The notes under the pieces were generated by a model. It was not told the origin of the DNA and searched no databases. It was given only the letters and a program-made list of their open reading frames with translations. Below, one piece after another: positions 1 to 26,310 of a stretch of DNA of 47,403 bases; positions within the stretch are counted from its first letter, which is position 1, and each line of letters begins with the position of its first letter. Where the stretch lies: IMG/VR virus record IMGVR_UViG_3300028840_003320, one strand, 5' to 3'. This DNA is from a virus. A program made the translations under genes and the position numbers.

Positions 1-144
1 AAGCAGGCGCTTTTCCAAGCGCTCACGCCCCTGGCGCACCAGGGTGGCAATGGATGCCTGGATCTTGGCGCTGCGTGCGTCTCTCAGATAGAACTTCGAG
101 CCGCCGATCGCACGCCCGTAGTGCTTGAAGTCGATCATGTGTCC
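1..144. repeat. Terminal overlap, copy 1 (identical to 47260-47403); indicates a circularly closed or permuted genome with 47,259 bp of unique sequence
   Basis: Read directly: all 144 nt at the window start recur exactly at the window end. The overlap lies inside one continuous ORF, the capsid gene. Confidence 0.95.
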
Positions 145-435
145 GATGGTCGTGCCGTGGATCGTGGTGATGTCGTCGATGTCCGTGATCTCGGGCATCT
201 CGCTGGCCGAGCCGCCCTGTTCATACTCCATCATCAGTTCTTCGGTCAGCCCAAAGCACCAACCCCAGTCAGTCACGATCTGTTGGTTGAAATCGCCCAC
301 GGCCAGGGCAACACGGTTGATCAGCTCGCCATAGGTGAGGCCATCGCGCAGCATCCACTCGGCAACGCGCGTGCCGTCTACACCTGTTGGCAGGGCCTTG
401 TTCAAAAGGGTTTGAGGTCCAATTACTTCTGCCAT
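1..435 (-). CDS. Major capsid protein, N-terminal 145 codons. The gene wraps across the junction and continues at 47259->46570, 374 aa in total
   Basis: ATG at 435 follows GGAG (CTAGGAGAAGATGAAACTATG). My translation MAEVIGPQTLLNKALPTGVDG...HGTTIGH runs in frame into MIDFKHYGRAIGG, the start of track ORF 46570..47397. It is absent from the ORF track because it is open at the window edge. It lies directly after the protease/scaffold and decoration genes. Confidence 0.8.
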   Translation of the reverse strand, partial: MAEVIGPQTLLNKALPTGVDGTRVAEWMLRDGLTYGELINRVALAVGDFNQQIVTDWGWCFGLTEELMMEYEQGGSASEMPEITDIDDITTIHGTTIGHMIDFKHYGRAIGGSKFYLRDARSAKIQASIATLVRQGRERLEKRLL

Positions 436-449
436 AGTTTCATCTTCTC

Positions 450-878
450 CTAGCTGCTCGACGGGTCGTTCTGCTGCGGGTGCAGCCAAAGCACGTTCTG
501 CCCGGCGATCTCAGCGCCCCAGCCAACGATGCGATCGTAGGTCGCTGCGGCATCGGCAACCGCACCAGCGGTGTCGGATACATAATAGTTGGCCCCCGGC
601 GTGATCGTAGCCAGTCCGGTCACAGGGCCGAACACACAGACGGTGCAGGCCGCACCATCGGCCACCGTGGTCTCGCCGTCGTAGCTTTCCACGACGATAC
701 CCTGTGCCCGCGCGGCTGCTGCGGTCGTGTTGGCATCTGCCGGATTCCAATCCCCATCGGAAGCGTGATAGACCAACTGTCCAACGGTCAAAGCTTCCCC
801 AGCTTGCGCTGGGATCGTGATGGCACCATGCTCACGCAAAGCGCGGACATTGGCTGCCGTTGCTGTCAAATCTGCCAT
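450..878 (-). CDS. Head decoration / capsid cement-like protein (DUF2190-like)
   Basis: 142 aa, Ala/Gly-rich, located between the scaffold/protease and capsid genes. The pattern (GQLVY..., AQGIVVES..., GANYYVSD) resembles DUF2190 proteins found at this position. Confidence 0.55.
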   Translation of the reverse strand: MADLTATAANVRALREHGAITIPAQAGEALTVGQLVYHASDGDWNPADANTTAAAARAQGIVVESYDGETTVADGAACTVCVFGPVTGLATITPGANYYVSDTAGAVADAAATYDRIVGWGAEIAGQNVLWLHPQQNDPSSS

Positions 879-889
879 GGTAGTTCCTC

Positions 890-2122
890 CTACAGTCCCA
901 TCTCAGCCCGAGCCCGCTTGCGCGCTTCGGGAGAGTCGTCGATCTTGTGACGATCGCGGACCTTGCCGCTCACGCGGGCAGGCGGCCCGGCCAGTGCATC
1001 GCGGATCATCTCGGCAAGTGGTTTGATGCCTTCCCATACCACCTTAGCGGCCTCTTCCAGCTTCTCAGCATCTCGCTCTTCGCCCAGCTCGCTCAAGATG
1101 TTCGTGCGCACCGTGCGGCGAAATGCTGCCACCTTGCCCTTGGCCTCGTCGCCCTCGACCTGCCAGTTGACCAGCTCAGCAACCTTGGCATCCAAAGATG
1201 CTTCAAATTCAGCCGCCTGCTTGGCCTTCAGCTGATCCTGCAGCGTGCCAATGATCGCGTCCTTGTCTGCGATCTGCTGCTTGAGTTCGGCAAGCTGCTT
1301 TTCAGCGGTCGCGCTCGCCTTCACTCCTTCAATAATCTGATCTCGCAGCGCTTCCGGGATGTCCTCAACCGTCAGCTCTGCAAGGACTTGCTCTTTCGTC
1401 AGAGACATAGTATCCTCCAAATCTGTTTCTTGTTGTTCCATCTGTGCCGTAATGGCAAATTGCCCGCCGAGTTTCAGCGCCGCGCGATCGGCAGGGGCCA
1501 AATCCAGCGATTCCAACCGCAATCCGCGAATGTGGTATGTGCCATCCGGCAACGTTTCTTTTTCCTCATAGGGGCCATAGATGCTCGTCGCCAGCTGGCC
1601 GCCGCGCGCTTTCAGCCGTCGAATGTACTCCCTGGCTGCGCCGGGAGGGATGTACCCTTTGCCCCACAAGATCCCCCCCTGGCGTGCTACACCAACCCAG
1701 TCCACATCCTCGATGGGAAAGGCTGTATCTCGCTCTTCGGTCTTGATATGCCCCATGATCCCACCGCGACCCACAACCTGCTCCTGGATCGCCTTGACCA
1801 GCGCATCATCGTAGTGCAAGCCGTTGCTGCTCACTTTGCCGACCTCCCCAACAGGGAGCGTGACAAAGAACGGCGCATCGTCACCAGACGTGAGCGCGCT
1901 CAAGTCTACCTTTGGATCAGGCGCGATTGTTGGATAGTTCCCACGGAACTCACCTACGATGTAATCCCGGACCATCTCGGATGCTTTGTGCCTCTCTTCC
2001 CACATCGAGTTGCACACCGCCACGGCTTGATCCTGACTCTCTGCCGTGCCGTCGTCCAGCACAATTGGAATGCAGCGCGAGATAAAATCGTCTCTCGATT
2101 CGCCCTCATTTGGTGTTGGCAT
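890..2122 (-). CDS. Prohead protease fused to a scaffolding (coiled-coil) domain
   Basis: 410 aa. The N-terminal ESRDDFISRCI...AVCNSMW motif is common in phage head proteins. There is a central protease-like core (GGIMGHIKTEE). The C-terminal half is charged and helical (QLAELKQQIADKDAIIGTLQDQLKAKQAAEFE). It lies upstream of the capsid gene. Confidence 0.6.
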   Translation of the reverse strand: MPTPNEGESRDDFISRCIPIVLDDGTAESQDQAVAVCNSMWEERHKASEMVRDYIVGEFRGNYPTIAPDPKVDLSALTSGDDAPFFVTLPVGEVGKVSSNGLHYDDALVKAIQEQVVGRGGIMGHIKTEERDTAFPIEDVDWVGVARQGGILWGKGYIPPGAAREYIRRLKARGGQLATSIYGPYEEKETLPDGTYHIRGLRLESLDLAPADRAALKLGGQFAITAQMEQQETDLEDTMSLTKEQVLAELTVEDIPEALRDQIIEGVKASATAEKQLAELKQQIADKDAIIGTLQDQLKAKQAAEFEASLDAKVAELVNWQVEGDEAKGKVAAFRRTVRTNILSELGEERDAEKLEEAAKVVWEGIKPLAEMIRDALAGPPARVSGKVRDRHKIDDSPEARKRARAEMGL

Positions 2123-2123
2123 A

Positions 2124-2885
2124 TCAGTTTCCTCGTTTCTCTATCGTGCCGTCTCTGAGCACCCACGGTGCATGAGCGCAGCCCGCGCCCCCATCGCCCA
2201 GCTCGGCAAGGAGGCGATAGTTCTCTTTGCATTCCGGCGTCTCTCGAATCCCTGGCGCAATCGGATGCGTTTGGTGGACGATGGTCACATCTGCTGTTAC
2301 ATCTACCACTGGAATGCCCAATTTGAGCGCCCGCGCAACAAGCCAATTGTCCCAGGCAGCGCGCCCTAAAGCGAATGGGGGGATCTCACCCCATACATTG
2401 CCCGCTGTGCAAAAGTAATCGATGCCCACGGGGGAATGCAAGACCCCATGCTCTTGGATGGCTGCCCATAAGTGCTTGCGCCAGTCCGTATCCAACTGTT
2501 TGCCTTGCAGGTCCAAGTCCGTGCGCTGTCCGATCATCAGAAAACGCTCAAAGCGGCTTGCACAGATTGCCGCCGCCCAGGCCAGCGGCCCTAGCACAAT
2601 GATGTCCGCATTGATGTAGCAGGTTAGACTAGATTGAACGTGCGCAAAAGCCGTCTCAAAGATGCTGGGCAAAAGCGGCGTGCCCTCGGCGTTCACCGCG
2701 ATCTCATAGGCCGGTAGGTCCATCTCGCGTGCCACGTCCGGCACATTGCTACCCAACTTGCCGGGTTCGTGTAGCAACATCACTTCGACGTCCATCTCTA
2801 GCCAACTCCTGATCGCATTGCGCTGGATGGTATCGTAAGGCCCTTCAAACGGCCTGGGTACAGAGAAGAGCGTCAGATCATACAT
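2124..2885 (-). CDS. Putative glycosyltransferase (GT-A-like, uncharacterised family)
   Basis: 253 aa. The N-terminus FSVPRPFEGPYDTIQRNAIRSW and the INADIIV acidic motif resemble a family usually annotated as glycosyltransferase. Its stop lies 1 nt before the protease/scaffold start codon. Confidence 0.45.
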   Translation of the reverse strand: MYDLTLFSVPRPFEGPYDTIQRNAIRSWLEMDVEVMLLHEPGKLGSNVPDVAREMDLPAYEIAVNAEGTPLLPSIFETAFAHVQSSLTCYINADIIVLGPLAWAAAICASRFERFLMIGQRTDLDLQGKQLDTDWRKHLWAAIQEHGVLHSPVGIDYFCTAGNVWGEIPPFALGRAAWDNWLVARALKLGIPVVDVTADVTIVHQTHPIAPGIRETPECKENYRLLAELGDGGAGCAHAPWVLRDGTIEKRGN

Positions 2886-4150
2886 TCTGGCCCCTTCCCA
2901 AAGCGCACGTAGCGATCACAAGTAAGCAGATCCGGATTGAAGAAACCCCACATGTCGACCACGCACTTGCCTGTCAGGTCCATTTCGTGTAATCCCTGGT
3001 ACTCTTTCCAGCAGGTCATCAGCACCAGCAAATCACACTCAGCTACAAACGTGCCCAGGTCTTTTTTGCACAGCACTGGATCATGTGCGTCAATGCTGCC
3101 CAGGTGGACCAGCGCATCAAAGAGCGCCTTGCCCTGGCTCTCTCCGCACGTCGCGCCCGGCTTGTAGGCCATCCCCAGGATGCCCACACGCGGATAATCG
3201 GCCATCAGCGTTTCGCACAAGTCGGCCAACCGCTGCAGCTCTCGACCCGCGGCCCGGCTGACCTGTTCGATGATCGGTGTAGCCATCCCGGCCCGGCGCC
3301 CAGCCGCCGCAAAAGCGCGCGTATCCCGTGGGAAGCAAGGCCCGCCCGGCCACGTCCCAGCACTGAAATAGCGCAATCCCACGCGCCCATCCGCACCGAT
3401 AGCTCCGAGCACATCGCACGCATCCGCGCCCGGTGTAGCCTGGCACAACCAGGCAATCTCATTGGCCAGTGCCATCTTTGCCACGACCACCGCATTGAGC
3501 CCGGTCTTGGTCAACTCTGCACTCTCCAGGCTCATGTGATAGATTACCGGATCGTTGTCCACCAGGCTCTCATAGTAGGATTGCACGACGATCCCCGCTT
3601 GTCGGTCGTGCTCTCCAATCACGATGTACTCTGGCCGCCGAAAATCATCAATAATCGAGCCCTGCCGGATGAACTCAGGAGAGTGGGTCAGCCCAAAGTC
3701 CACACCCAAACGCAGCCCTGAGACCTCTTCGATCAGTTTCCCAATCTTGCGCACCTCGCCAGGCATGACCGTCGAAACCACGTTGACCACGATGTAAGGC
3801 ATACCCAAGTGCATAGTATCTGCTAACCCTTGGGCCACGTCCACCGCCGCCGCCCGCACACATTGGCTAGAAAACTGTCCGGCCGGCGTGGAGGGCGTAG
3901 CTGTGATGATGCACACCAGGTCGGCCAGGTGCGTAGCCCACGCATTATCGGAGAGCAGCGTCAGGCGCTCTCGGTGCTTGCGCACCAGTCCATTGATCTG
4001 AGGCTCCGCACAGTCTACACACCCTTCCCGGATGGCCTCTAGCGCCGCCTCGTTGACGTCCGAAATGATGACCTCGTGCCCGCGCTCTGCACTCCATAGC
4101 GCAAAGGGAAGCCCCAACTTTCCCGCGCCGCCGATGTAGGCTACACGCAT
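2873..4150 (-). CDS. NAD-dependent nucleotide-sugar dehydrogenase (UDP-glucose/GDP-mannose dehydrogenase family)
   Basis: Rossmann N-terminus MRVAYIGGAGKLGLP, SPEFIRQGS motif and catalytic-Cys motif GGPCFPRD. The track ORF extends to 4177; the likely start is the MRVAYIGG Met at 4150. Confidence 0.88.
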   Translation of the reverse strand: MRVAYIGGAGKLGLPFALWSAERGHEVIISDVNEAALEAIREGCVDCAEPQINGLVRKHRERLTLLSDNAWATHLADLVCIITATPSTPAGQFSSQCVRAAAVDVAQGLADTMHLGMPYIVVNVVSTVMPGEVRKIGKLIEEVSGLRLGVDFGLTHSPEFIRQGSIIDDFRRPEYIVIGEHDRQAGIVVQSYYESLVDNDPVIYHMSLESAELTKTGLNAVVVAKMALANEIAWLCQATPGADACDVLGAIGADGRVGLRYFSAGTWPGGPCFPRDTRAFAAAGRRAGMATPIIEQVSRAAGRELQRLADLCETLMADYPRVGILGMAYKPGATCGESQGKALFDALVHLGSIDAHDPVLCKKDLGTFVAECDLLVLMTCWKEYQGLHEMDLTGKCVVDMWGFFNPDLLTCDRYVRFGKGPECMI

Positions 4151-5526
4151 TGTGCCGCCTCCACATGTCCAACCCACCCAGGATGCGGGCGAAAGTGCAG
4201 GCCAGAATGCTCCTCGAACATGTGCAGCTTGCAGAAATGATGATACAGCGGCAAGCGGAGCGGATCGAAGCCCATCAGGTGCGCTGCGAATACATCCACA
4301 GCAAGCAGATTCTCACCACCGATCAGCAGGCCAGCCAGGACCGGATCGGGCGCAAGTGGCCCGTTGCCTTCCCCGCCGATCACCCCATCGACGATCGAGA
4401 ACGTGCGCCCTTGGCATACACAGTCAAACGCCGCATAGAGATCAGCTACCATTCGCCATGTGGTATCATTCCCATACCAGTTGCCCGCGTCGAGGGCGCG
4501 CTTGTGTTCGTCCACCTTGAGCCCTAGCTTGCGTGTAGTGTGGTTATGCAGCCAATAGATAGCCTGGTGCAGCCAGTCCAGGACCGGCACCTGCCGCGCC
4601 AGAAGATGGTCATACATCCAACGCTCCAAGCCGATCAATGCCTGCTCGTGCGGTGCCCACAGCTTATCGGGGTACTGATCGCCGCCCTCACTTGGTGGTC
4701 CCAATGTGTAATGTGGCAGACAGTTCTTGTCTGTGCAGATACCCACTAGATTCTTGAGATTGAGCGTCACGCCTGCCTTTTTGTGCGTTTTCATCTTGGG
4801 CAGCGAGATCACCAAGTCGGCCTCGGGGACCGTGCGAGACAGGACATACCGATGCCGCTTGCCGCTGTGATACCCTGCCAAATCCCCACGCCAGTAGCAC
4901 GCGCCGACCATCCGATCAACCCGATCAACGTCCATCCCTGCAAAGAGGCTGTGATCCCCTAGATCGACCATCGTTGCCCCCTTCGGATCGCCGGGCAGCG
5001 GCTCCAATTGTGAGGCCAAATGCCGCCCTTTGGACCAGTAGGAGCGTAGATCAAGCAGGGTCATCATGCCGCCATAGAGGTCCGCTACTTGGGGCAACCC
5101 TGTGATGTCCATCAGCTTGGCCCAATCACAATCATACTGTGGCGCATCGGCTACGATGATCCGTCCCTCTCCCTGCAGCGCAATGTAGCAATAGTCGGCC
5201 ACTGCCCGGATCACAGACGGATGTGTGATCACCGCGTACAGATCGCCACCGCCTCGGTTTCTGTGCGCCACAAAGTTTGGCTTGAGCACGACCGTCATGC
5301 CCGGCTTGAGGAATTCCCCAAGCGGATTCCAAGCGGGCGTGTCAAAGCGGGCCTGATCGAGCCTAAGCTGATACAGCAGCCGCCGCACACCCGAATACAC
5401 GAAATTGAAGTCTAGCCCGAGCTGCCCTGGAAAGGGATACTCTGGGAAAGCCGCCAGCGGATGGTAAGGTGCTACGGTTGGATAGCCCGCCGGAATTACT
5501 CGGGTCATGACGATCTGCTCATTCAT
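4141..5526 (-). CDS. DUF362-domain protein (function unknown)
   Basis: 461 aa. The VVLKPNFV...ITHPSVIRAVADY...IIVADAP pattern is typical of DUF362. Start and stop overlap the neighbouring genes. Confidence 0.55.
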   Translation of the reverse strand: MNEQIVMTRVIPAGYPTVAPYHPLAAFPEYPFPGQLGLDFNFVYSGVRRLLYQLRLDQARFDTPAWNPLGEFLKPGMTVVLKPNFVAHRNRGGGDLYAVITHPSVIRAVADYCYIALQGEGRIIVADAPQYDCDWAKLMDITGLPQVADLYGGMMTLLDLRSYWSKGRHLASQLEPLPGDPKGATMVDLGDHSLFAGMDVDRVDRMVGACYWRGDLAGYHSGKRHRYVLSRTVPEADLVISLPKMKTHKKAGVTLNLKNLVGICTDKNCLPHYTLGPPSEGGDQYPDKLWAPHEQALIGLERWMYDHLLARQVPVLDWLHQAIYWLHNHTTRKLGLKVDEHKRALDAGNWYGNDTTWRMVADLYAAFDCVCQGRTFSIVDGVIGGEGNGPLAPDPVLAGLLIGGENLLAVDVFAAHLMGFDPLRLPLYHHFCKLHMFEEHSGLHFRPHPGWVGHVEAAQCV

Positions 5527-6781
5527 CGCGGATCACCAATCGCTGCTTGCCGCGCCGCGTGCGCCCGATGGCATCGACCTGCTCCAGTTCAAGATCAAAA
5601 CCGCTCAACTTGCGCATCAATCCCGCCCGCATTCGCACCTCGTCAGCTTGACCCACATAGAACACAGTCACCATGCCCGGTTGCATCTGCCAGAACTGGA
5701 CCGCCTGTACCCCGCGCAACGTGTCATCGTGAAAGTTGACAGCAGTCATGTAGACACGCCGGCCGTCTGCACTCTCAAGATATTCCTGTTCCCGCCCAAC
5801 AATGCGCCGCCAGACTTGCCCCTGCCGCCCACATGCCGAGCACCCCCAACCGGCAAACTCAGCCAGATCGCCGGTGCGGTAGCGGACCATCGGCGTAGCG
5901 TGCATGATGAACGACGTAGCGACAATCTCACCCACATGGCCGGGCACTGTGACAGGCTGACCGTTTTCATCGAGCAGCTCTGCATAGCCGTATTGTGGCA
6001 AAACGTGGTACGTATCGGCGCCTTCACAGTACCCGGCCAGCACCGCGCACTCATAGTGCCCGTAGTGATCGAACACCCGCCCGCCGAACACGCGCGCCAT
6101 AATCTCTTTCTGCCACGGGTACAGATTCTCCGATGCGCACAGAACGCCTTTGACCGGCAGCTCGTGCCCGGTTTCTGCCAGCCAGCAAGCAAAAGCATAG
6201 CCGGAAGAGGGATAACAGCGGATCCACTCTGGCTTGTACTCTAGCACCGCTTGATAATACCGCTCGATCCATCCCGGCGTGAGATGGTAGGAAGAGCAGC
6301 GCAGCTCGTTCAACTCGGGCACGTACTCCATGTGGTTGGGTGTGTCAATCACCAGCCCGCGCAAGGTTAGTTGCCGGTCTCCCTCTTTCCAGCCGATAGC
6401 ACGGTACAAGTGCGCCTTGCTGGCCAGCTCGCGGGCAAACGTCAGCGGATCGCGCCAGAAGCCAAATGGTTCCCCGGTTGAGCCACCTGTGGTGGTCCAG
6501 ACGCGCCCAGGGATCGGCACGGAAAAGCGCTCCACATCTGCGCGCATCGTCGCCTTATCCACCATCGGGAAGCGCCGTAGATCGTCGAGGTCGTGCAGAT
6601 CACTTGGAGAGATACCCGCCGCGTCATAGAGTTCCCGATACCCGCGCGTGTTCTCATAGGCCCAAGTGAGCGCCTTGATCACCTCAGCGCGCGCCAATGC
6701 CTCGGAATGATGGTACTCTGTCATCTCCAAGTATTGCCGCCAAGCCATATAGATTGGATTGTCGAGGTCTTTGTGTTTCAA
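5519..6781 (-). CDS. CapK / phenylacetate-CoA-ligase-like adenylate-forming enzyme
   Basis: 420 aa. It carries the AMP-binding P-loop-like motif TTGGSTGEPF, an RTGD motif (MVRYRTGDLAEF) and the PaaK/CapK/F390-synthetase family architecture. Confidence 0.75.
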   Translation of the reverse strand: MKHKDLDNPIYMAWRQYLEMTEYHHSEALARAEVIKALTWAYENTRGYRELYDAAGISPSDLHDLDDLRRFPMVDKATMRADVERFSVPIPGRVWTTTGGSTGEPFGFWRDPLTFARELASKAHLYRAIGWKEGDRQLTLRGLVIDTPNHMEYVPELNELRCSSYHLTPGWIERYYQAVLEYKPEWIRCYPSSGYAFACWLAETGHELPVKGVLCASENLYPWQKEIMARVFGGRVFDHYGHYECAVLAGYCEGADTYHVLPQYGYAELLDENGQPVTVPGHVGEIVATSFIMHATPMVRYRTGDLAEFAGWGCSACGRQGQVWRRIVGREQEYLESADGRRVYMTAVNFHDDTLRGVQAVQFWQMQPGMVTVFYVGQADEVRMRAGLMRKLSGFDLELEQVDAIGRTRRGKQRLVIRDE

Positions 6782-7365
6782 GGTATCCTCTCAAAATCCA
6801 GGTTCTCTTCTTGGTTCAGGCTCCAAGGTGTGGCACTGGTCAGACGAAAGCCGTTTCTTTCCAGATAGGTCACTGTCTCTGACTTGTCCGATGCCCCCAT
6901 GTAGGGAGAGCGCGCAATCTGTACCTCGAGGCGAATACGATCGACATCGGCGATCCGCTGGCCTAGAGAGTGTATCACGGCCAAGTCTGCCCCCTGCGCA
7001 TCAATTTTGAGGTATTCGACGTGCCCGATGCCCACCCAGTTGAGAAACGTATCCAACCGGATCGAAGGCACATAGCGTACATCGGTCACCCGGAGGCCGC
7101 TATTGTCCTTCCAGCCTGCTACCCCTGCCGCGTCAAGCGGTAGAATGCTGCTGCACGAGTCATTGACAGTCACATAGAACGGCACACATCCGTTGCACTC
7201 CGAGACAGCCATCGGCAAGACCACAAAGCGCGGATGCCTACCCACTGACTTGAGCGCAAGAGCCAGGTTCGGCTCAAAGGCATAGATGGTCAAGTCGTCG
7301 GCCATCATTGGCAGCGTTGTCTCTCCGTAATGCGCGCCCACGTCCAGCCAGATTCTCATCGCCAA
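6778..7365 (-). CDS. FkbM-family SAM-dependent methyltransferase
   Basis: LDVGAHYGETT (SAM-binding Gly motif) and VEYLKIDAQGADLAV are hallmark FkbM/Methyltransf_21 motifs. Confidence 0.75.
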   Translation of the reverse strand: MAMRIWLDVGAHYGETTLPMMADDLTIYAFEPNLALALKSVGRHPRFVVLPMAVSECNGCVPFYVTVNDSCSSILPLDAAGVAGWKDNSGLRVTDVRYVPSIRLDTFLNWVGIGHVEYLKIDAQGADLAVIHSLGQRIADVDRIRLEVQIARSPYMGASDKSETVTYLERNGFRLTSATPWSLNQEENLDFERIP

Positions 7366-8186
7366 TCGAATGCCTCTCTTGTCCGGTCACTTTCAAACAC
7401 ATAGGGCTCTTGATCGTCGAATCCCATCCGCTCGAAGAGGTCCGGCTTGAAATGCACGCCCTCACGCCCGATAGAAATGCCCCGGTTGACCGTCGTGCGG
7501 ACCCTGCACATCCCGGCTAGGTGGATGGCCATGTCCTTGCCGCCGTCTTGGGAGCTGGCGTAGTGCTTCCAACCGACTTCTTGAAAGAGCGCCTGCACCT
7601 TGCCATGTGGCAGTTGGGCATAATCGCAATCCTGGATCAGCTCATAGTAGCGCATAAAGTGCGGGCGAATGCGCGCCCAGCGGTCGGGCGTGAAGGCAAC
7701 CATCCACCAGTGCGGGCGGCCTACAGCAACCTGATCCAACCACTGATCGGTTTCCTCTTTCTTGCACCAACGTCGAAAGCCGGTTGTAAAGCCGAACACG
7801 TCCGGGCGGTGCTCGAGCTCGTCAAATAGGATCGGCAGTAAGCGTGCCCAGTAGGGCGATAGGATTACATCATCTTCCAGCATCACGATCCGCTCGTAGC
7901 ACGCACACATCCACTCGTAGGCTTTGAACTGGTTGATCCCCACGCCAAGGTTGGCCATGCGGATATGGACCTCTTTCACACCGGGCAGGTGGGCGCTGAA
8001 AAACACCTCGACCGCTTTCCGAATGCGCCCCGCATCGCCAACCTCCCGAGCGCTGAACAAGTTAATCGCATTGTCTTGGAACAGGTGCCAAGCCAGTTCC
8101 GGCGCGTCGACCTGTGCCTCCAAACTCTCCAAGAGCTGGGCCAAGTAGTCAGGACGGTCGAAAGAGACAATGCCGACGCCGATCAT
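7356..8186 (-). CDS. GT-A fold glycosyltransferase (family 2-like)
   Basis: N-terminal IGVGIVSFDRPDYLAQLLESL and a DXD-type motif (VMLEDDV). 276 aa. Confidence 0.6.
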   Translation of the reverse strand: MIGVGIVSFDRPDYLAQLLESLEAQVDAPELAWHLFQDNAINLFSAREVGDAGRIRKAVEVFFSAHLPGVKEVHIRMANLGVGINQFKAYEWMCACYERIVMLEDDVILSPYWARLLPILFDELEHRPDVFGFTTGFRRWCKKEETDQWLDQVAVGRPHWWMVAFTPDRWARIRPHFMRYYELIQDCDYAQLPHGKVQALFQEVGWKHYASSQDGGKDMAIHLAGMCRVRTTVNRGISIGREGVHFKPDLFERMGFDDQEPYVFESDRTREAFDWR

Positions 8187-8347
8187 TGCTTGCTGCTCCC
8201 TGTTGGCCTAGTGTTTTCTTCAAGTTGCAGCTTGATCGCACCCACAAGCACGCCCTTGTCTTGTATGCTCCATTTATGTACCTGGTTATCATAGAGCATC
8301 TTCACAATTCGACTAATCAGCCGGTCCCGTTCCTCTTGTGTTGCCAT
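8183..8347 (-). CDS. Small hypothetical protein (54 aa, below the ORF-track cutoff)
   Basis: My translation is MATQEERDRLISRIVKMLYDNQVHKWSIQDKGVLVGAIKLQLEENTRPTGSSKQ*. Its TGA overlaps the ATG of the GT2 gene (ATGA), and it fills an otherwise empty gap. Confidence 0.5.
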   Translation of the reverse strand: MATQEERDRLISRIVKMLYDNQVHKWSIQDKGVLVGAIKLQLEENTRPTGSSKQ

Positions 8348-8358
8348 TAAAATGCCCC

Positions 8359-10155
8359 CTAAAAGCTCCCTGTGATCTTTGTCGCTCGAATCAAATCAGA
8401 CAATTCTAGCTTACCGTAAGCGTCCAATGTAGGCAGAGCAAGCGGATCAGTGGCACTTTCTTCACAGACCGCAGCAAGATCAAAGTCCACTAATTTAGTC
8501 ACCCGCTCGCGGCTTTCCACTGGCACACGGTCAATCTGTGATGGCCTGCCACTTTTGGTGATCAGCAATTCCTTGTCTCCCAGTTCATCTAGGAGCCTTT
8601 GCAACTGATAGAAGTCAGCCTTGGCAATGTCACGTTCACTATACCCTGCCCGTTTCAAGAGCTGCCCCATAGCCTCGGCCATGTCCTCTTTGGCTTCTGC
8701 CCATAATTCCCCTTCCATCCGTCGCGCTGCACTGACAGAAAAAGCGCCTTGTCTGACTTGTATTTGCTCTTTCCCTACGACCATCCAGCCCGAATCCTGA
8801 GCCCCACGCATTTGAGCCACATAAGAACGGATACCTTCTTTGGTGTATTTGTTGTAGAGTTCTATACCCTCATCATGAAGCTGATCCGCCAATTGCTGCC
8901 ATTCAAAATCAGATGCTTGCTCTGGCCCAATTCCAAAAGCATCCCATAAAGCTTGATTCAATTCCCGCTCTTGGTTTAACTGCTGCTCTAGAGTATCAAT
9001 CACACTTTTGAGACCTGCCCCAGTTGGATCTCCTTCTTCGATCACTGCTTCCATAATTGGGCGCATCGAATCAATCTCTTGCTGCAGATCAGTCTCTCGT
9101 CTACTAGGCGATCTCACTATAGGCACTGGTCCTCTTTGCCATGCCCGCCGCGCTGCTCTGATCTCTTCCCGCGCCTGATCCAATATCGCGGCGCTGTCTT
9201 CTGTGATCACATTCTCCCAGTAGCACAGACAATGCGGATGCGCCGGCTGTGTTGGCAAATCGTCAAACTCATATTCCTTATCGGCGTAGCTGTCACAGAT
9301 GTCACAGCACGGATGCTGGGGCGATAGTTTCCAGCGCAACTTCTCCACAAACGGGTTGGCCTTAGCTGCCGCCTCGTGTGCCTGGGAGGCCGCGCGCGTG
9401 ATCTCTGTCCGTGCCAGCCGCATAGCATCATAAGACGCATCTGTGCCATAGGGTGTCTTGGTGCGTACCAGTTGCCGCCCTGGATGCAAGAACCGCTCCA
9501 GATCACGAGACAACTTGAGCGATCCCCGCCCGCGCGCGATCCCATCCTCCAAAAAGGCATCTATCTTGCGCCGCGTCTCGCTTGCCGTGCGCCAAATCCG
9601 GTCACTCAGCCGGTAACCATTCGGGTCAACCCACAAGTGCGGTGGGTCGTAGCCTGCCAGTGGGTTTGGTGCAAAGACCTCTCGCTGCCCCTGTGCATTT
9701 CTACGAACGCTCCAATAGTCCATCAGCGCATCAAGCGAAAAAGCCTCTTGCTCACGGGCAATGCCTGCCCGCATGGCTAGTTCAGCCTTAACCTCAGCTG
9801 GCAATAGGCGATTCATCATCGCTGCTTCCCGCTCGACCTCGATCCGCATGGCATCTGTAATCGAAGCCCACAGGATACGCATGTAGCTCGAAAGCGGCAT
9901 CACCGAGCCATCGGGCAAGACCTCGTAGGGAGCCAGCACCCCTGCCCGGTTGCGGCCGACGAACAATCTCACGATCCGCTCTCCGATGTCCCGTTGTAAG
10001 TCGTAGGTCGCGCTTCTTGGAATCTGCCCATCCGCATCCGCACTGCGCACGATCTGACTCGTGGCATAGCGCGCCAGGCCGGCAAAGAGCGCGGTCATCT
10101 GCTCTTCATTCCTGCGCATCACGCGCAAATGTTGGCTACGGTAACTAGTTGCCAC
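8359..10155 (-). CDS. Minor head / head morphogenesis protein (SPP1 gp7 / Mu F-like) with a long C-terminal extension
   Basis: Mu-F motif region ...ARTEITRAASQAHEAAAKANPFVEKLRWKLSPQHPCCDICDSYADKEYEFDDLPTQPAHPHCLCYWE. It lies in the head module downstream of the portal gene. Confidence 0.8.
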   Translation of the reverse strand: MATSYRSQHLRVMRRNEEQMTALFAGLARYATSQIVRSADADGQIPRSATYDLQRDIGERIVRLFVGRNRAGVLAPYEVLPDGSVMPLSSYMRILWASITDAMRIEVEREAAMMNRLLPAEVKAELAMRAGIAREQEAFSLDALMDYWSVRRNAQGQREVFAPNPLAGYDPPHLWVDPNGYRLSDRIWRTASETRRKIDAFLEDGIARGRGSLKLSRDLERFLHPGRQLVRTKTPYGTDASYDAMRLARTEITRAASQAHEAAAKANPFVEKLRWKLSPQHPCCDICDSYADKEYEFDDLPTQPAHPHCLCYWENVITEDSAAILDQAREEIRAARRAWQRGPVPIVRSPSRRETDLQQEIDSMRPIMEAVIEEGDPTGAGLKSVIDTLEQQLNQERELNQALWDAFGIGPEQASDFEWQQLADQLHDEGIELYNKYTKEGIRSYVAQMRGAQDSGWMVVGKEQIQVRQGAFSVSAARRMEGELWAEAKEDMAEAMGQLLKRAGYSERDIAKADFYQLQRLLDELGDKELLITKSGRPSQIDRVPVESRERVTKLVDFDLAAVCEESATDPLALPTLDAYGKLELSDLIRATKITGSF

Positions 10156-10157
10156 GC

Positions 10158-10940
10158 TCAGATTCCATACCGCGCTGCAAGGTAGGCTTCTACCGACTGT
10201 CTATTAGCCGCACTCAGTGCAGAATTGTAGACGATGATCTCTGCTATCCATCCTTCAAGGCCGAGGATAGCTGCCCCTGCATTAGAGCGCCCGGCAGTGA
10301 TGCACTCTTCGTTTGCCAGACTGGGCGTATTCGTAGGGCTTCCGGTACCCGTCTCTGCCATAGATATACCATTGTGCCAATATTCACCGCTGCCATAATC
10401 TGCCCCGGCTGCCCTGATCCATGCGCTGTAGCTCCAGCTTGCCCAGTCCGCACCACTAAATGCCTGGTTTCCGTTGTTGTAGCGGTAGCTGGCTCCGCCC
10501 TCTGGAGAAAGACCAACGACCTCTCCCGCTGCGCCATCATTCGCGCCCAGTTGAAAAAATCGCCCGGATGCACTGCCAGTTTCCGCGTCCTTTGCGACGA
10601 TAAAGACCGAGATCGCCGGATTGCCTGTAAAGCCGAGCGCATCGGCGCGCCCAAGATACTCTCCTTCGTTGGCAAGGTACACAGCAGGGAGAGAGTTGAT
10701 CTGATTCAGGTCCAACTCCGGCTTATTCGCGCCCGACTGGGTTAGATGGTTCCCATTGCCGCTCTGATCTTCCCAGCCGCCAACAGCATCCCCATCACCC
10801 GTTGCCGGCGTAGTCATGGCATCGTCTTGGTACGTCCCTGTATCGGACTTTACCCACAGCAGCAAACCGGCCAGATCATCCGGCGAAAACTCGCCACTAC
10901 TTACAGCGCTAGGCCCCGCGCCAACCATTGGCAGAGACAT
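10158..10940 (-). CDS. LamG / concanavalin-A-like lectin-domain protein
   Basis: WEDQSGNGNHLTQ...NKPEL...N..PAVYL pattern and the C-terminal ...NRQSVEAYLAARYGI are typical of Laminin-G_3 domain proteins. Confidence 0.6.
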   Translation of the reverse strand: MSLPMVGAGPSAVSSGEFSPDDLAGLLLWVKSDTGTYQDDAMTTPATGDGDAVGGWEDQSGNGNHLTQSGANKPELDLNQINSLPAVYLANEGEYLGRADALGFTGNPAISVFIVAKDAETGSASGRFFQLGANDGAAGEVVGLSPEGGASYRYNNGNQAFSGADWASWSYSAWIRAAGADYGSGEYWHNGISMAETGTGSPTNTPSLANEECITAGRSNAGAAILGLEGWIAEIIVYNSALSAANRQSVEAYLAARYGI

Positions 10941-10942
10941 TG

Positions 10943-11563
10943 CTACACGCTCACAATCGCATAAGTGATAATACCATCAACCGTGCAAGCCCCTGTATCG
11001 GCCTCAAGTGCTTTGTTGGTAGCAACCTTGATCCAAGGCATAGCAAAGTTGCCGCTCATAGGAAGCACCCAGCCGCCTTCATCTGAGACTGCCATCGTAC
11101 CCGAGAGAGCGGTATCATCCTCATCTTGGAGCGTCACCGTGCCCGCTGCTGTGTCGGCCATCATAAAAAGGCCATACACCCAGAGCTGCTTGTTGGCACC
11201 GGGCGCGGTAACGAGTACTTGGTTAGCAGTAGAGGCCGCGAGATTGACCACAGCGCTGGCAAAACTATCTATCGTCGGGTTACCTGGCCCCTGCACCGCA
11301 CCGGGCAGTGTGAGCACATCCACATCCCCGATGTTATTTGTCCCTGCCGGCAAAGCCGCGCCAACAGTCACAGATCCATCAACCGTCAGTGCCCCGCCCG
11401 CATCCGACACAGGCACCGGGTTGGCATTGGCAACATCCGCGTCACCCACCTGGATATTGGCATCGACCTTGCTCGTTGCGCCCGAAGCTACAGAGACCTG
11501 CCCCGGATTGCTGGCCGTGAAAAGCTCATTTTCGCTGCTATCGTTGATCACTACTCTAGGCAT
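10943..11563 (-). CDS. Hypothetical virion-associated protein
   Basis: 206 aa, Gly/Ala/Val-rich with beta-strand-like repeats (NPVPVSD, GTNNIGDVDV). It sits between the portal and LamG genes. No motif supports a functional assignment. Confidence 0.4.
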   Translation of the reverse strand: MPRVVINDSSENELFTASNPGQVSVASGATSKVDANIQVGDADVANANPVPVSDAGGALTVDGSVTVGAALPAGTNNIGDVDVLTLPGAVQGPGNPTIDSFASAVVNLAASTANQVLVTAPGANKQLWVYGLFMMADTAAGTVTLQDEDDTALSGTMAVSDEGGWVLPMSGNFAMPWIKVATNKALEADTGACTVDGIITYAIVSV

Positions 11564-13025
11564 TATCAGCCTCCTCTTGTTGCGCCGCGCTCATGTCGCG
11601 CTGAAAGTCAAAACTGGTCCCATCTGGGAAAAGAGCCTCTCGCCGCTCGTCTGCCTCTGCCTGCGCATCCTGCGCTTCCTGGTCCGGGTTGGGCACGATG
11701 TCCAAGAGTGTCAGCGCTGTGTGGTCGGTGATCAGGTTGCGATCCGCCGCAAAGGTCAGCTTATCGAGCAGCGTGCGCACGTCTTGGGGAATCACCTCAG
11801 GCCACTCGACCGTCAAAGCATCGACCACCAGCGGCTCAGTTAGCACCGTCGTCTGTAGCCAAACCTCAGTCACATCTCGCAGCCAGCCCGCATTCTCGAC
11901 CTGCCGCCCTTTGATGTCCCGCACCCATTGGTCCATCTGCGTCTCAGCAGTCGAGCGGGAACTGGTCAACTCGCCGCCCCAGATGAATTCAGGGATACCC
12001 GTATGATCCAAGAGCAGCAAAAAGAGCGATTTCAGCGCTGCTTTGGTGTCCTCGGTAAAGCCGACCGTCGGCCCGGCGAATTTGAAAGAGCCGCCCTTAC
12101 CCACGAGCATGACGCTGTTCTGGTCCAACGTCAATTGGGTATGCGTGATCTCGTTGCCGTCTTTGTCGTAGTACGTGTCATACTCTGCCGGCGCGTTTTG
12201 GTCGATGACCTGGCTGATATCCTCCATACCCTCGAACACGGGGATTGGGTTGCCCAGGAGCTTGGCACCGTCGAGCTGCTTGAAGATCAGATCATCGTAC
12301 TGGTCGTAGAGCGGTCTCAATTCCTCGTGGATCGGATGGCCATAGGTCTCATTGGCACTACGCATGTGTGGGACATGGACAACCGGCAAACGCCCGATCA
12401 GGTTCTCAAAGGTCATCTCTGAGACTACTTGCCCGCCCTCTCGGGTCGTAACCATGCGATCGAAAGCGGTGTAGCGGTCCTCAATCGTCTGAGTGTCCGT
12501 CTTGGTGGTCACGGTCACAACCACGAGCTGCCGATAATCCAGCGGATTCCACTCAGGTTCTACCGTGTCTGGGCTTGGGATGGATAGACTGCCATCCGCA
12601 TTGACGATGATCCACTGGTCTCCCAGGCCGAGCTTGTCCCTGAACACGTCGAGCAGCGTATCGGCATTCTGCTCTAGAAAATCGGCAATGGCCTGATCTG
12701 TCAGATTTCTCGGGTCGTTCTCGTTGCCCGGATCGCCCGACTCAGCCAGGGAGATCACCACGCCCTGGCCCAGCACCCAGGTAGCAAAGATGTTTTCGAT
12801 CCGCTCGCAGAAAAGGCCGCTGAGCGTGTAGCCCTTGGCCTTGCAGCGTCTAAGCTTGTCCCAAAACTCATAGTCAGGCCGCGTCTGATCGTAGGTCTTG
12901 ACGTAGGAGCGGCTCTTGTAGAGCGTCGTCTGTGCGCTGCCCAGGACATAGCGCCCGATCAGCTCAGAGACCGGAGCACGGCCAAATAGCCGTCCCAGAA
13001 AGCCGGGTTTAGTGTCTTGAGCCAT
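11556..13025 (-). CDS. Portal protein
   Basis: 489 aa, immediately downstream of the large terminase, with an acidic C-terminus. The call rests on size and position. Confidence 0.7.
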   Translation of the reverse strand: MAQDTKPGFLGRLFGRAPVSELIGRYVLGSAQTTLYKSRSYVKTYDQTRPDYEFWDKLRRCKAKGYTLSGLFCERIENIFATWVLGQGVVISLAESGDPGNENDPRNLTDQAIADFLEQNADTLLDVFRDKLGLGDQWIIVNADGSLSIPSPDTVEPEWNPLDYRQLVVVTVTTKTDTQTIEDRYTAFDRMVTTREGGQVVSEMTFENLIGRLPVVHVPHMRSANETYGHPIHEELRPLYDQYDDLIFKQLDGAKLLGNPIPVFEGMEDISQVIDQNAPAEYDTYYDKDGNEITHTQLTLDQNSVMLVGKGGSFKFAGPTVGFTEDTKAALKSLFLLLLDHTGIPEFIWGGELTSSRSTAETQMDQWVRDIKGRQVENAGWLRDVTEVWLQTTVLTEPLVVDALTVEWPEVIPQDVRTLLDKLTFAADRNLITDHTALTLLDIVPNPDQEAQDAQAEADERREALFPDGTSFDFQRDMSAAQQEEADNA

Positions 13026-25407: not shown

Positions 25408-25436
25408 TTCTCACCTCCTCGTATCCACATTCTCAG

Positions 25437-25509
25437 AGCCAGCGCCCGGAGTCGAACCGGGAACCGGGCCATTACAAATGGCCTGCGCTGCCTGTTGCGC
25501 TACGCTGGC
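25437..25509 (-). tRNA. tRNA-Thr (anticodon UGU), phage-encoded, no encoded CCA
   Basis: Manual cloverleaf on the minus strand: acceptor GCCAGCG/CGCTGGC, D stem GCGC/GCGC with loop AACAGGCA, anticodon stem GGCCA/TGGCC with loop TTTGTAA, variable loop CGGTT, T stem CCCGG/CCGGG with loop TTCGACT. 73 nt. Confidence 0.85.
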
Positions 25510-25517
25510 TACTCGGT

Positions 25518-26307: not shown

Positions 26308-26310
26308 CTA

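Follow-up and report, generated by a model that had tools for sequence, protein, structure and literature searches.

The window, a stretch of 47,403 nt, is the complete circular genome of a temperate phage that is uncultured and known from metagenomes only. Its bases 47260-47403 duplicate bases 1-144, and the circular join was reconstructed. At 2124-8186 on the minus strand, six tightly chained enzyme genes (hereafter, the cassette) separate the gene of a MuF-like minor head protein from a probable scaffold gene. The six minus-strand open reading frames (ORFs) claimed in the first-pass annotation were all found at the positions listed here with their neighbours.

8359-10155, minus strand: MuF-like minor head protein, 598 aa, upstream boundary of the island (PF04233, phrog_1657)
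8183-8347, minus strand: conserved 54-aa ORF (sequence read directly; gene-called in the source contigs)
7356-8186, minus strand: GT-A fold glycosyltransferase, 276 aa, GnT-I/POMGnT1-like, with an EDD motif (AlphaFold2 and Foldseek)
6778-7365, minus strand: FkbM-family methyltransferase, 195 aa (PF05050, TIGR01444)
5519-6781, minus strand: PaaK/CapK-like adenylate-forming ligase, 420 aa (PDB match, P-loop motif, bacterial orthologues)
4141-5526, minus strand: DUF362 protein, 461 aa (PF04015)
2873-4177, minus strand: NDP-sugar 6-dehydrogenase, 434 aa as the longest ORF (TIGR03026, Pfam, PHROG, PDB, motifs)
2124-2885, minus strand: second GT-A fold glycosyltransferase, 253 aa (AlphaFold2 and Foldseek)
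890-2122, minus strand: probable scaffold, 410 aa, downstream boundary of the island (position, coiled-coil C-terminus)
450-878, minus strand: head decoration/cement-like protein, 142 aa (weak PF22758, position)
1-435 (N-terminal part) and 46570-47259 (C-terminal part), minus strand: major capsid protein, across the window ends (phrog_3990)
45506-46534, minus strand: GT4 (GT-B) glycosyltransferase, 342 aa (phrog_2170, EX7E)
43412-43966, minus strand: major tail (tube) protein (phrog_4971 major tail protein, 8.9e-17)

The overlapping or abutting junctions claimed for this region were seen in the sequence from the MuF gene through the scaffold gene, and the embedding of the cassette in the late operon was borne out by stop and start codons that overlap or abut those of the neighbours. 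The 54-aa ORF (8347-8183), whose product is 81% identical to its counterpart in the related contig L040, connects the MuF gene to the first enzyme gene, with an ATGA overlap of stop and start codons. An array of about 16.4 kb starts with the small terminase gene and ends with the GT4 gene, its largest gap being 35 bp. Promoter-like and terminator-like sites, scanned with a sigma-70 consensus that may not suit the host of this phage, were no commoner in the cassette than in shuffled sequence, in agreement with the earlier claim that internal promoters and terminators are lacking. The GC content of the cassette is 58.6%, as compared with 57.1% in the remaining genome. No clear membrane-spanning segment was found in any cassette protein, and the genes that were scanned yielded no priming phosphoglycosyltransferase, flippase or polymerase.

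All six enzyme assignments stand: the FkbM, DUF362, dehydrogenase and ligase proteins were identified by profile searches, and the two putative glycosyltransferases, neither of which has a Pfam match, both adopt GT-A folds in high-confidence AlphaFold2 models. For the 276-aa protein (pLDDT 94; Foldseek probability 1.0), the top Foldseek match was 1foa (E 9e-10), followed by 5ggi and 5vcm, and many giant-virus GT-A proteins were also matched. Its earlier designation as GT2-like is loose, the nearest folds being GT13 and GT16 enzymes. The residues E104 and D106 are invariant across 32 homologues, and all of its database relatives (34 of 34) are unnamed metagenomic proteins. From the IMG/VR viral-contig collection, 35 loci with this protein were retrieved; in those inspected, its gene adjoins GT4 and methyltransferase genes, downstream of the capsid genes. 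For the 253-aa protein (pLDDT 94.8; Foldseek probability 1.0), the top match was the WrtF fucosyltransferase 9omh (5e-7), and then other GT-A enzymes. The FkbM protein matched PF05050 at 66 bits (cutoff 22.7; 5.6e-18) and TIGR01444 at 56 bits (cutoff 37.7); gene callers place its start at 7359 (193 aa), which is the probable start.

The ligase was related to the PDB entry of PaaK, 2y4o (E 2.9e-18), and carries the P-loop TTGGSTGEP. Its matches to the NCBIfam families PaaK, FlxY and DVU1553 are all below the family cutoffs, and its bacterial orthologues (52-56% identity) bear PF27533 CapK_C. The DUF362 protein matched PF04015 at 101 bits (cutoff 24) and has more than 4,000 homologues; its gene was always partnered by a CapK-like ligase gene. 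No relative of it was found among PDB sequences, the profile search included. The dehydrogenase matched TIGR03026 at 226 bits (cutoff 190), PF03721 and PF00984 above their cutoffs, PF03720 at 28.5 against a cutoff of 30, phrog_9148 at 9e-57 and PDB 3vtf at 4e-43, and both the Rossmann motif GAGKLG and the catalytic-cysteine motif GGPCFPRD are present. Its true start may lie further downstream than that of the longest ORF.

The genes of these three proteins form a conserved trio, in constant order, in bacterial surface-polysaccharide loci (Caldilineaceae and Chloroflexota metagenome-assembled genomes, plus two large contigs), and this trio is a bacterial module that predates the phage cassette. 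Homologues of the 253-aa glycosyltransferase adjoin the trio in two contigs, L078 and L080, and another lies in a bacterial Wzm/Wzt locus (L042). L078 is an unrelated phage whose portal is of Mu type and whose trypsin-like protease contains an intein; downstream of the genes for these two proteins, within the head module, it carries the trio and the 253-aa homologue in the same order. This occurrence in an unrelated lineage was counted for a virion target. Among 50,697 GenBank phage records, one weak match to DUF362 and seven to the CapK-like ligase were found, mostly in unverified fecal contigs.

As for the flanking genes, the MuF-like protein matched PF04233 at 34.6 bits (cutoff 29.6) and phrog_1657 at 1.5e-38. 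It has a C-terminal extension of about 250 aa that is missing from some relatives, and the contigs L005-L009 match its residues 1-347 only. The 410-aa protein, called a protease/scaffold before, does flank the island, and its gene in relatives is invariably just ahead of the decoration-like and capsid genes. Its matches are unnamed PHROGs, with none in the PDB; its position and coiled-coil C-terminus make it a probable scaffold, possibly fused to a protease. The 142-aa protein matched PF22758 (Phage_cement) weakly and below the cutoff (1.5e-4); the position of its gene ahead of the capsid gene is conserved, and its C-terminus is QQNDPSSS. The capsid gene, with its start codon at 435, encodes a protein matching the major head protein family phrog_3990 (2.3e-20).

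The GT4 gene begins 35 bp past the capsid gene; its product matched the glycosyltransferase family phrog_2170 (4.3e-23) and has the EX7E motif at residues 231-239. A GT4 gene directly follows the capsid gene in 19 of 19 IMG/VR relatives, and likewise in every metagenome relative whose contig continues for more than 250 bp beyond the capsid gene. It is the seventh enzyme and the conserved core of the system. Thus, the limits 2124-8186 hold for the island but not for the system, since the GT4 gene at 46534-45506 also belongs to it.

A clear diversity was found in the contents of the interval between the MuF and scaffold genes among the relatives. In L056, L057 and L064 the slot is nearly empty, the distance from the MuF to the scaffold gene being just 0.46-0.6 kb; the near-adjacency of these genes, predicted to be restored in other phages, was therefore seen. 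The slot holds two GT2 genes in L054, a sulfotransferase gene in L055, and methyltransferase, GT4 and GT-A/epimerase genes in L047. In L049 and L084 it carries two GT2 genes, a weak sulfotransferase-like match, a hexapeptide acyltransferase and a DegT aminotransferase, and in L052, which is related to them, it includes a short-chain dehydrogenase. A cassette of the present type occurs in L040, and in L006 together with an extra GT4, a methyltransferase and a GT2. The MuF-to-scaffold gap is a hypervariable hot spot of glycan genes, and the present cassette is one allele of it. The variable slot and the GT4 gene fixed by the capsid gene were together counted for a virion target.

Between the window and L040, the cassette genes gave dN/dS values of 0.09-0.18 with dS of 1.1-2.1, the same range as for the structural genes. 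These values, together with same-order orthologues in other contigs, indicate that the ORFs are real and not chance ones; by this sequence comparison, the cassette genes are under purifying selection and long resident. The notion that the cassette is inert cargo, a recently captured bacterial fragment functionless in the phage, is effectively refuted by this analysis: its nearest non-phage homologues are indeed bacterial, but relatives with near-saturated synonymous sites have same-order cassettes, the catalytic motifs are intact, and the GC content is like that of the rest of the genome.

From the gene positions and the comparative data, virion proteins are suggested as the acceptor, and the capsid and tail tube proteins are the likeliest candidates. 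Of the 419 open frames in the genome that are 60 aa or longer, these two alone have the ending P[TS]N?I[STG] (...SGSWTNPTIS in the capsid protein and ...IPPTNIT in the tail tube protein). The tail tube C-terminus, IPP[TS]NI[ST], is kept in most relatives of the GT4-carrying clade, and the capsid motif was found throughout the capsid family. The latter includes L133 and L124, whose head genes have no detected glycosyltransferase gene nearby, so the motif may be structural rather than an acceptor signal. L054 has three glycosyltransferase genes, yet its capsid motif has decayed to NPIIA.

On balance, we favour a phage-encoded system for virion glycosylation, of which the cassette is the variable part and whose product would be a methylated uronic-acid glycan modified at its carboxylate. 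The 16.4-kb array would be expressed late as one co-transcribed unit, so that the enzymes would be produced alongside the head and tail proteins. The dehydrogenase would convert a host NDP-hexose to an NDP-hexuronic acid, whose carboxylate the CapK-like ligase would adenylate and couple to an amine, by analogy with VpsH. The DUF362 protein, as the constant partner of the ligase, would carry out an accompanying step; since DUF362 and the N-terminal domain of the racemase/epimerase LarA belong to one Pfam clan (PMC11770544), a stereochemical change near the carboxylate is possible. The modified sugar would then be transferred by the 253-aa glycosyltransferase, the companion of the trio in other contigs. 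The clade-conserved GT4 beside the capsid gene probably primes the protein acceptor, the GnT-I-like enzyme would lengthen the chain, and FkbM would O-methylate it. Since solubility is predicted for each of the seven enzymes, the glycan would be assembled in the cytoplasm directly on virion proteins.

An experimental precedent was obtained for the suggestion that the ligase derivatises the carboxylate of a uronic acid, so far as the analogy holds: VpsH, a PaaK/CapK-like protein of Vibrio cholerae VPS, is needed for the glycine on a uronic-acid carboxylate (PMC13463779). The VPS uronic acid arises via a sugar dehydrogenase, and a separate protein was proposed as the C5 epimerase (PMC13463779), a logic that parallels the phage dehydrogenase, DUF362 protein and ligase, VpsH being compared by description and not by sequence. 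Two differences exist: the substrate of VpsH is a lipid-linked disaccharide (PMC13463779), and the proposed epimerase, VpsJ, reportedly resembles GlcNAc 2-epimerases, DUF362 being absent from that report. In the bacterial trio loci, the three genes are in the identical order, with 51-56% identity for the ligase and DUF362 proteins, and FkbM, Methyltransf_24, GT2 and GT4 genes are often nearby. However, their dehydrogenases are merely 34-35% identical to that of the phage, and they include Wzx, Wzy, Wzz, Wzm/Wzt, priming transferase or exosortase genes, which indicates that those loci act on lipid-linked, exported polymers.

Cytoplasmic synthesis of capsid glycans by virus-encoded nucleotide-sugar enzymes and glycosyltransferases occurs in chloroviruses and mimiviruses, which differ from this phage in their eukaryotic hosts, their unrelated capsids and the location of the genes outside a head-operon slot. 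Among phages, virion glycosylation has been described for the mycobacteriophages Che8, Corndog and Myrna (Freeman et al. 2023, Cell Host Microbe 31:1216; PMC12619734, PMC12363180, PMC10877033), in which, according to papers citing that study, glycosyltransferases modify the C-termini of capsid and tail tube subunits (PMC12619734, PMC12363180). Phage-encoded glycosyltransferases are common to those systems and the one predicted here, related actinobacteriophages also having methyltransferases, and in both the genes lie among structural genes. The short Pro/Thr/Ser C-terminal tail shared by the capsid and tail tube proteins here recalls the acceptor sites reported for those phages. In contrast to the mycobacteriophage systems, the predicted one adds nucleotide-sugar chemistry (dehydrogenase, CapK-like ligase and DUF362) and fills the hypervariable slot. 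No relationship in sequence was detected between the GT4 and the mycobacteriophage glycosyltransferases; its only phage matches, in Arthrobacter, Streptomyces, Rhodococcus and Microcystis phages, are 22-30% identical. The best database match, gp29 of Arthrobacter phage Kitkat (23% identity over 95% of the length), is likewise a single GT4-type gene among head and tail genes, an actinobacteriophage example in the structural module. It is, however, a lone gene between the tail terminator and tail genes, in a phage with neither a sugar-precursor pathway nor a variable island, and the Kitkat capsid and tail proteins have no common C-terminal motif.

The cassette might instead change the surface polysaccharide of the host, perhaps attaching a modified uronic acid to it, so that the serotype is altered or superinfection is blocked and the virion is not the target. 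Such lysogenic conversion stays alive because the phage is temperate, encoding a tyrosine integrase (34135-35118) and an HTH regulator; the location of the trio and 253-aa homologues in bacterial Wzx/Wzy, Wzm/Wzt and exosortase loci, and variable glycan sets that recall O-antigen diversity, are also consistent with it. We nevertheless regard it as unlikely, for the cassette lies amid the operon of late structural genes, with the integrase some 14 kb away; its stop and start codons overlap, and it has no promoter-like site beyond the shuffled background. Moreover, the enzymes look soluble and neither a membrane protein nor a priming transferase, flippase or polymerase was found with them, the GT4 is fixed beside the capsid gene clade-wide, and an unrelated phage also has the module among its head genes. 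Soluble, cytoplasmic enzymes would equally suit a non-virion target during lytic growth (host proteins, defence components or a secreted glycan), aiding replication or release, and the capsid and tail tube proteins are candidate acceptors for which the C-terminal motif argument is weak. This explanation, which leaves the embedding among head and capsid genes in two unrelated phage lineages unexplained, seems rather improbable, and we know of no system of that kind that employs such gene sets.

A decoration of modified DNA bases by the glycosyltransferases and the uronic-acid pathway, evading restriction, would be in line with the dehydrogenase homologues in phages such as SP-15, whose DNA is hypermodified. 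The cassette, however, belongs to the head operon and is separate from the replication genes at 15-32 kb, and polysaccharide tailoring is the typical role of FkbM and CapK-like enzymes. Hypermodification of DNA by phage glycosyltransferases is known (Pyle et al., bioRxiv 10.1101/2023.12.21.572611), but a scan of the large early ORFs, which left out many small ones, gave no hydroxymethylase, TET/5mYOX enzyme or DNA methyltransferase, and this explanation is very improbable.

Returning to virion glycosylation, the occurrence of differing sugar gene sets in one slot among the relatives suggests that the phage probably glycosylates its own particle, coating it with a custom sugar.

The first 144 bases of the window are identical to its last 144 (1-144 and 47260-47403, an exact direct repeat), so the contig is complete, whether circular or circularly permuted, and its actual length is 47,259 bp. 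Its JGI counterpart is contig Ga0180437_10001104. The window ends fall inside the major capsid gene, which occupies 435-1 and 47259-46570. The genome is that of a temperate phage of the siphovirus type, arranged as follows.

34135-35118, + strand: tyrosine integrase, a lysogeny gene
+ strand: HTH regulator, a lysogeny gene
about 31.7 to 15.2 kb, - strand: early genes (primase-polymerase/D5 helicase, RecT-like protein, PD-(D/E)XK nuclease, ERCC4 nuclease)
14698-14249, - strand: small terminase, the first gene of the late array
minus strand: large terminase, then portal, then two proteins with no assigned function; late array, after the small terminase
10155-8359, - strand: MuF-like protein; late array, before the enzyme cassette
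8186-2124, - strand: the cassette of six enzyme genes
2122-890, - strand: 410-aa probable scaffold; late array, after the cassette
878-450, - strand: 142-aa decoration-like protein, after the scaffold and before the capsid
46534-45506, - strand: GT4 glycosyltransferase, 35 bp after the capsid gene
minus strand: connector proteins, between GT4 and the major tail protein
43966-43412, - strand: major tail protein, late array
minus strand: tail assembly chaperone, then tape measure protein, then two distal tail proteins; end of the late array

From the small terminase to GT4, the intergenic gaps are all 35 bp or shorter. The cassette is joined to the flanking late genes by junctions of 1-11 bp, and a conserved 54-aa ORF lies between the MuF gene and the first enzyme gene, whose start overlaps the ORF's stop in an ATGA. 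A sequence check recovered the six ORFs where the first-pass annotation had placed them, with overlapping or abutting stops and starts. That annotation had found no internal promoter or terminator. Here, nothing promoter-like occurs on the coding strand at 2124-8347, as judged by a sigma-70 consensus that may not fit the host, and terminator-like hairpins are not commoner than in shuffled sequence. The junctions and the promoter scan also bear out its view that the cassette is no self-contained moron. The cassette does not look like an autonomous unit of the moron or lysogenic-conversion type: it is closely joined to its neighbors, shows no sigma-70-type site of its own and has a GC content of 58.6%, where the remainder of the genome has 57.1%. 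Of the label "protease/scaffold" given earlier to the 410-aa protein, the scaffold part stands as probable, while profile searches failed to confirm a protease.

A megablast search with window positions 1-12000 gave no match among the GenBank phages, and on this basis the phage has no cultured relative. A genome scan for the host found one prophage in a MAG and one distant match in a Saccharibacteria MAG. One close-relative fragment was binned into an Anaerolineae MAG, the only taxon given by the cluster names, and this bin is a weak pointer to the host.

Several other features of the genome were recorded. At its C-terminus, the MuF protein carries an extension of about 250 aa (residues ~330-598) that is mostly helical. 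This extension is also present in the related contig L040 and missing from the MuF proteins of about 346 aa in the loci L005-L009; in other phages, variable MuF C-terminal domains often act as cargo or effectors. Two genes, for proteins of 206 and 260 aa, separate the portal gene from the MuF gene (10158-11563, - strand). The 260-aa protein matches a PHROG of the "virion structural protein" category, and the L040 gene at its position carries a Laminin_G_3 (lectin-like) domain; this region is likewise variable among relatives. The early region at 24634-27243 (- strand) encodes a PAPS-reductase-like protein, a DnaJ-domain protein and a weak, below-cutoff match to a VWA domain, and contains a tRNA-Thr(TGT) at 25436-25509. 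The PAPS-reductase-like family is linked in other phages to DNA or nucleotide modification.

All six enzyme identities proposed in the first-pass annotation hold, four through profiles and two through predicted structures. The FkbM protein scored 66.1 bits against PF05050 (threshold, 22.7) and 56.3 against TIGR01444 (37.7). The 420-aa ligase is clearly PaaK/CapK-like by sequence, with PaaK matches in the PDB at 3e-18 to 5e-12 and an intact P-loop (TTGGSTGEP). It was rejected as a true PaaK (phenylacetate-CoA ligase), as all the NCBIfam and Pfam scores are under the equivalog cutoffs; its bacterial orthologues carry PF27533 (CapK_C). The DUF362 protein scored 101 bits against PF04015 (Pfam gathering threshold, 24), and sequence and profile searches of the PDB sequences found no relative of it. 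The dehydrogenase scored 226 bits against TIGR03026 (curated cutoff, 190), with PF03721 and PF00984 above their cutoffs and PF03720 just under (28.5 vs 30), and it has the Rossmann motif GAGKLG and the catalytic-Cys motif GGPCFPRD; its substrate would be found among the candidates UDP-Glc, GDP-Man and UDP-ManNAc.

For the two unannotated ORFs (276 and 253 aa), no match was found in the Pfam, NCBIfam, PHROGs and PDB sequence searches. We collected and aligned their homologues and predicted both structures, from which their GT-A identity solely came. The 276-aa model (pLDDT 94.0) has a GT-A fold, and its top 13 PDB matches are GnT-I, POMGnT1 and GnT-II (E-values of 1e-9 to 1e-7; query-normalized TM-scores of 0.47-0.60). 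In its EDD motif, E104 and D106 are invariant in the homologue alignment. The relatives are all metagenomic proteins, one distant homologue carrying PF00535, and the model would be compatible with GT13, GT16 and GT2 as candidate CAZy families. The 253-aa model (pLDDT 94.8) also has a GT-A fold, with the WrtF fucosyltransferase, a Leptospira glycosyltransferase and the K4 chondroitin polymerase (K4CP) as best structure matches; at the expected motif position it has N-A-D rather than the classical DxD, N92 and D94 being invariant. With the GT4 enzyme (phrog_2170 at 4e-23; EX7E motif present), the genome thus encodes three glycosyltransferases, one GT4 and two of GT-A fold. No convincing transmembrane segment was found in any of the seven enzymes.

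The cassette genes appear, from sequence comparison, to be functional residents of the phage. In L040 (JABAHP010002732.1, a 47,016-bp contig), they occur in the window order with 63-80% amino acid identity. The dS values between the two are 1.1-2.1 for cassette and structural genes alike, and the cassette genes have dN/dS ratios of 0.09-0.18, the structural genes of 0.06-0.13. Both sets of ratios are approximate because dS is near saturation. This selection analysis excludes inert cargo.

To place the locus among its relatives, a capsid-protein profile search was used, which yielded 27 IMG/VR loci and 68 metagenome loci (the sets partly overlap). Two contrasting parts were found. One is the GT4 gene, which directly follows the capsid gene in 19 of 19 IMG/VR loci of the clade with >50% capsid identity, and likewise in every metagenome contig of this clade that extends more than about 250 bp past the capsid gene. 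This linkage marks GT4 as a conserved core, lying outside the region first annotated as the cassette. Another is the MuF-to-scaffold interval, which is hypervariable, as listed below.

Contents of the MuF-to-scaffold interval in the window and related loci
L056, L057, L064: 0.46-0.6 kb, with one small ORF at most
L073 (MAG prophage): scaffold gene directly after the portal gene
L054: two GT2 genes
L062, L111, L101: weak GT2-like gene and hexapeptide acyltransferase
L060: hexapeptide acyltransferase, 279-aa ORF with no known function, phage metallopeptidase
L055: sulfotransferase and weak GT2-like gene
L049, L084: GT2, GT2, weak sulfotransferase-like match, hexapeptide acyltransferase, DegT aminotransferase
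L052 (related; the contig starts inside the island): short-chain dehydrogenase and hexapeptide acyltransferase
L047: Methyltransf_24, GT4-like gene, 253-aa GT-A homologue joined to an NAD-dependent epimerase/dehydratase
L094: GT2 and a GT-A/epimerase gene of the L047 type
window, L040: the six-gene set
L006: window-type set with additional GT4, Methyltransf_24 and GT2; FkbM in a different position

Thus, the MuF-scaffold adjacency, for which a synteny check had been suggested, is essentially restored in some relatives, and most of the inserted genes in the relatives with annotated inserts are glycan-related. The variability of this island resembles the diversity of bacterial O-antigen loci. 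In a separate observation, the 43.5-kb contig JAEHJW020008213.1 (L137, L138) carries two distant capsid-gene homologues about 30 kb apart, which suggests tandem prophages or an assembly chimera.

The information on the origin of the ligase, DUF362 and dehydrogenase genes (the trio) comes from their bacterial counterparts. Bacterial homologues of the DUF362 protein number in the thousands, at ~50-55% identity, those named being from Chloroflexota, Acidobacteriota and Deltaproteobacteria MAGs. We inspected four bacterial contexts (L044, L045, L149 and L150: a Caldilineaceae MAG, a Chloroflexota MAG, and contigs of 1.1 Mb and 4.5 Mb). In all four, the order CapK_C ligase, DUF362, sugar dehydrogenase is the same as in the phage, and the genes around the trio are those of a surface-polysaccharide locus (Wzx, Wzy, Wzz, Wzm/Wzt, a priming transferase or exosortase genes, with GT2, GT4, GT11 and FkbM genes as well). 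The order is strict across distant bacterial groups. Identity to the bacterial versions is 51-56% for the phage ligase and the phage DUF362 protein, and only 34-35% for the dehydrogenase.

The trio seems, by these sequence searches, to be essentially absent from the GenBank phage records, where DUF362 had one match and the ligase seven weak matches, mostly in unverified fecal contigs. The lone DUF362 match, in the unverified fecal contig MT835502 with an adjoining CapK-like gene, was set aside because it is doubtful that this contig is viral. Scanning IMG/VR with a DUF362 profile added three contigs. L078, one of the three, comes from an unrelated phage whose portal is of the Mu type and whose trypsin-like protease carries an intein; downstream of these genes are two sulfotransferases and an epimerase, followed by the trio and a homologue of the 253-aa GT-A protein in the window order. 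In L080, the trio is likewise paired with this homologue. These arrangements indicate that a four-gene unit moves between phage head modules, and they make the 253-aa enzyme the best candidate transferase for the sugar of the trio. The head protease gene of L078 (3483-5381) is interrupted by the intein, which has a LAGLIDADG homing-endonuclease domain.

As for the chemistry, the dehydrogenase would supply an NDP-hexuronic acid, most likely UDP-GlcA, with GDP-ManA or an N-acetylated uronic acid as possible alternatives. O-methylation of sugars is common among FkbM-family enzymes. Genetic evidence from Vibrio cholerae shows that placing glycine on the carboxylate of L-GulNAcA requires the PaaK/CapK-like protein VpsH; the pathway to this uronic acid includes a dehydrogenase and, as a distinct protein, a proposed C5 epimerase (PMC13463779). 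By analogy, this precedent would support the carboxylate derivatization suggested in the first-pass annotation, and, together with the constant adjacency of the ligase gene to a sugar dehydrogenase gene, it suggests that the ligase may form a uronic-acid amide. Our literature search found no paper assigning a function to DUF362. As DUF362 and the N-terminal domain of LarA belong to a common Pfam clan, CL0471 (PMC11770544), a stereochemical change beside the carboxylate may be put forward as its role, only as a guess.

Where such a glycan would be attached is the next question, and the virion is, in our judgment, the rather likely target. The cassette lies among head genes in two unrelated lineages, GT4 is fixed beside the capsid gene, the enzymes are predicted to be soluble, and the phage shows no lipid-carrier or export machinery; by position and comparison, these features point to the particle. 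In the cassette and 29 other large ORFs scanned, no priming phosphoglycosyltransferase, flippase/polymerase or ABC exporter was found, and a Wzx/Wzy- or ABC-dependent surface polysaccharide pathway was rejected on this ground. Lysogenic conversion, in which the cassette alters the host polysaccharide, is possible in that the phage is temperate and the trio derives from bacterial polysaccharide loci. The location in mid-operon, the lack of membrane steps and the linkage of GT4 to the capsid gene are not easily reconciled with it. It is also possible that a non-virion protein is glycosylated. Glycosylation of DNA is unlikely considering the location of the cassette and the lack of any recognizable base-hydroxymethylating enzyme among the ORFs scanned.

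Within the virion, the capsid protein ends with WTNPTIS and the tail tube protein with IPPTNIT, and a screen of 419 open frames with 60 aa or more found a C-terminus of the form P[TS]N?I[STG] in these two alone. Most GT4-carrying relatives keep both tails. The capsid motif occurs throughout the capsid family, even at 28% identity. It is present in L133 and L124, where the connector genes directly follow the capsid gene and a tblastn panel found no glycosyltransferase near the head genes, and it has degenerated in L054 despite three glycosyltransferase genes; the tail tube motif was seen only in the GT4-carrying clade. Because the shared motif does not cleanly track glycosyltransferase presence across the capsid family, it is regarded as consistent with these tails being acceptor sites and no longer as evidence for it. 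The C-terminal tails of the capsid and tail tube proteins are plausible acceptors. The decoration-like protein (450-878) ends with QQNDPSSS. Most relatives with a capsid identity of >50% share a tail of the [QE]QN[DA]P[SA]S type, which the distant clade lacks; this protein could serve as a third acceptor.

To our knowledge, a few mycobacteriophages are the only phages whose own enzymes have been shown to glycosylate the virion, a modification that shields the particles from antibodies. According to Freeman et al. (2023), as cited in PMC12619734, PMC12363180 and PMC10877033, the mycobacteriophage glycosyltransferases act on the C-termini of capsid and tail tube subunits. In its proposed working, the present system would resemble these actinobacteriophage systems. 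No sequence homology to the mycobacteriophage capsid glycosyltransferases (the Che8 gp110/Corndog gp38 cluster) was found: as the sole tblastn query against 50,697 phage records, GT4 gave 48 matches, none of them in Mycobacterium phages; the best are in Arthrobacter and Streptomyces phages at 22-30% identity. In the Arthrobacter phage Kitkat, no comparable C-terminal tail is shared by the capsid and tail proteins. What is distinctive here is the combination of a fixed core and a variable island in the head operon, as well as a uronic-acid tailoring module essentially absent from the GenBank phage records.

Taken together, and more tentatively than for the target itself, we propose that an uncultured temperate siphovirus lineage may keep an O-antigen-like "virion serotype" locus, in which the fixed GT4 and a swappable MuF-scaffold island set the capsid/tail glycan; here, this might be an amide-modified, O-methylated uronic-acid glycan made through the bacterial-derived trio. 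If this holds, virion glycosylation here would be unlinked by sequence to the actinobacteriophage systems, and the locus would be a compact setting for learning the function of DUF362. The locus draws attention to three genes (CapK-like ligase, DUF362 and sugar dehydrogenase) that form a widespread module in bacterial polysaccharide loci. The seven-gene soluble phage system would offer a tractable route to reconstituting this module, and soluble enzymes building defined glycans on self-assembling capsids could serve the making of glycoconjugates. The locus also suggests that virion glycosylation is wider and chemically richer than in the mycobacteriophages. The interchangeable gene sets at one head-operon position cover uronic-acid, amino-sugar, acetyl, sulfate and methyl chemistry, which implies strong diversifying selection on the particle surface; host defenses, adsorption to polysaccharide matrices and grazers are possible causes. 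If the proposal is right, the surface glycans of phage particles would be subject to the diversifying selection that also acts on those of their hosts.
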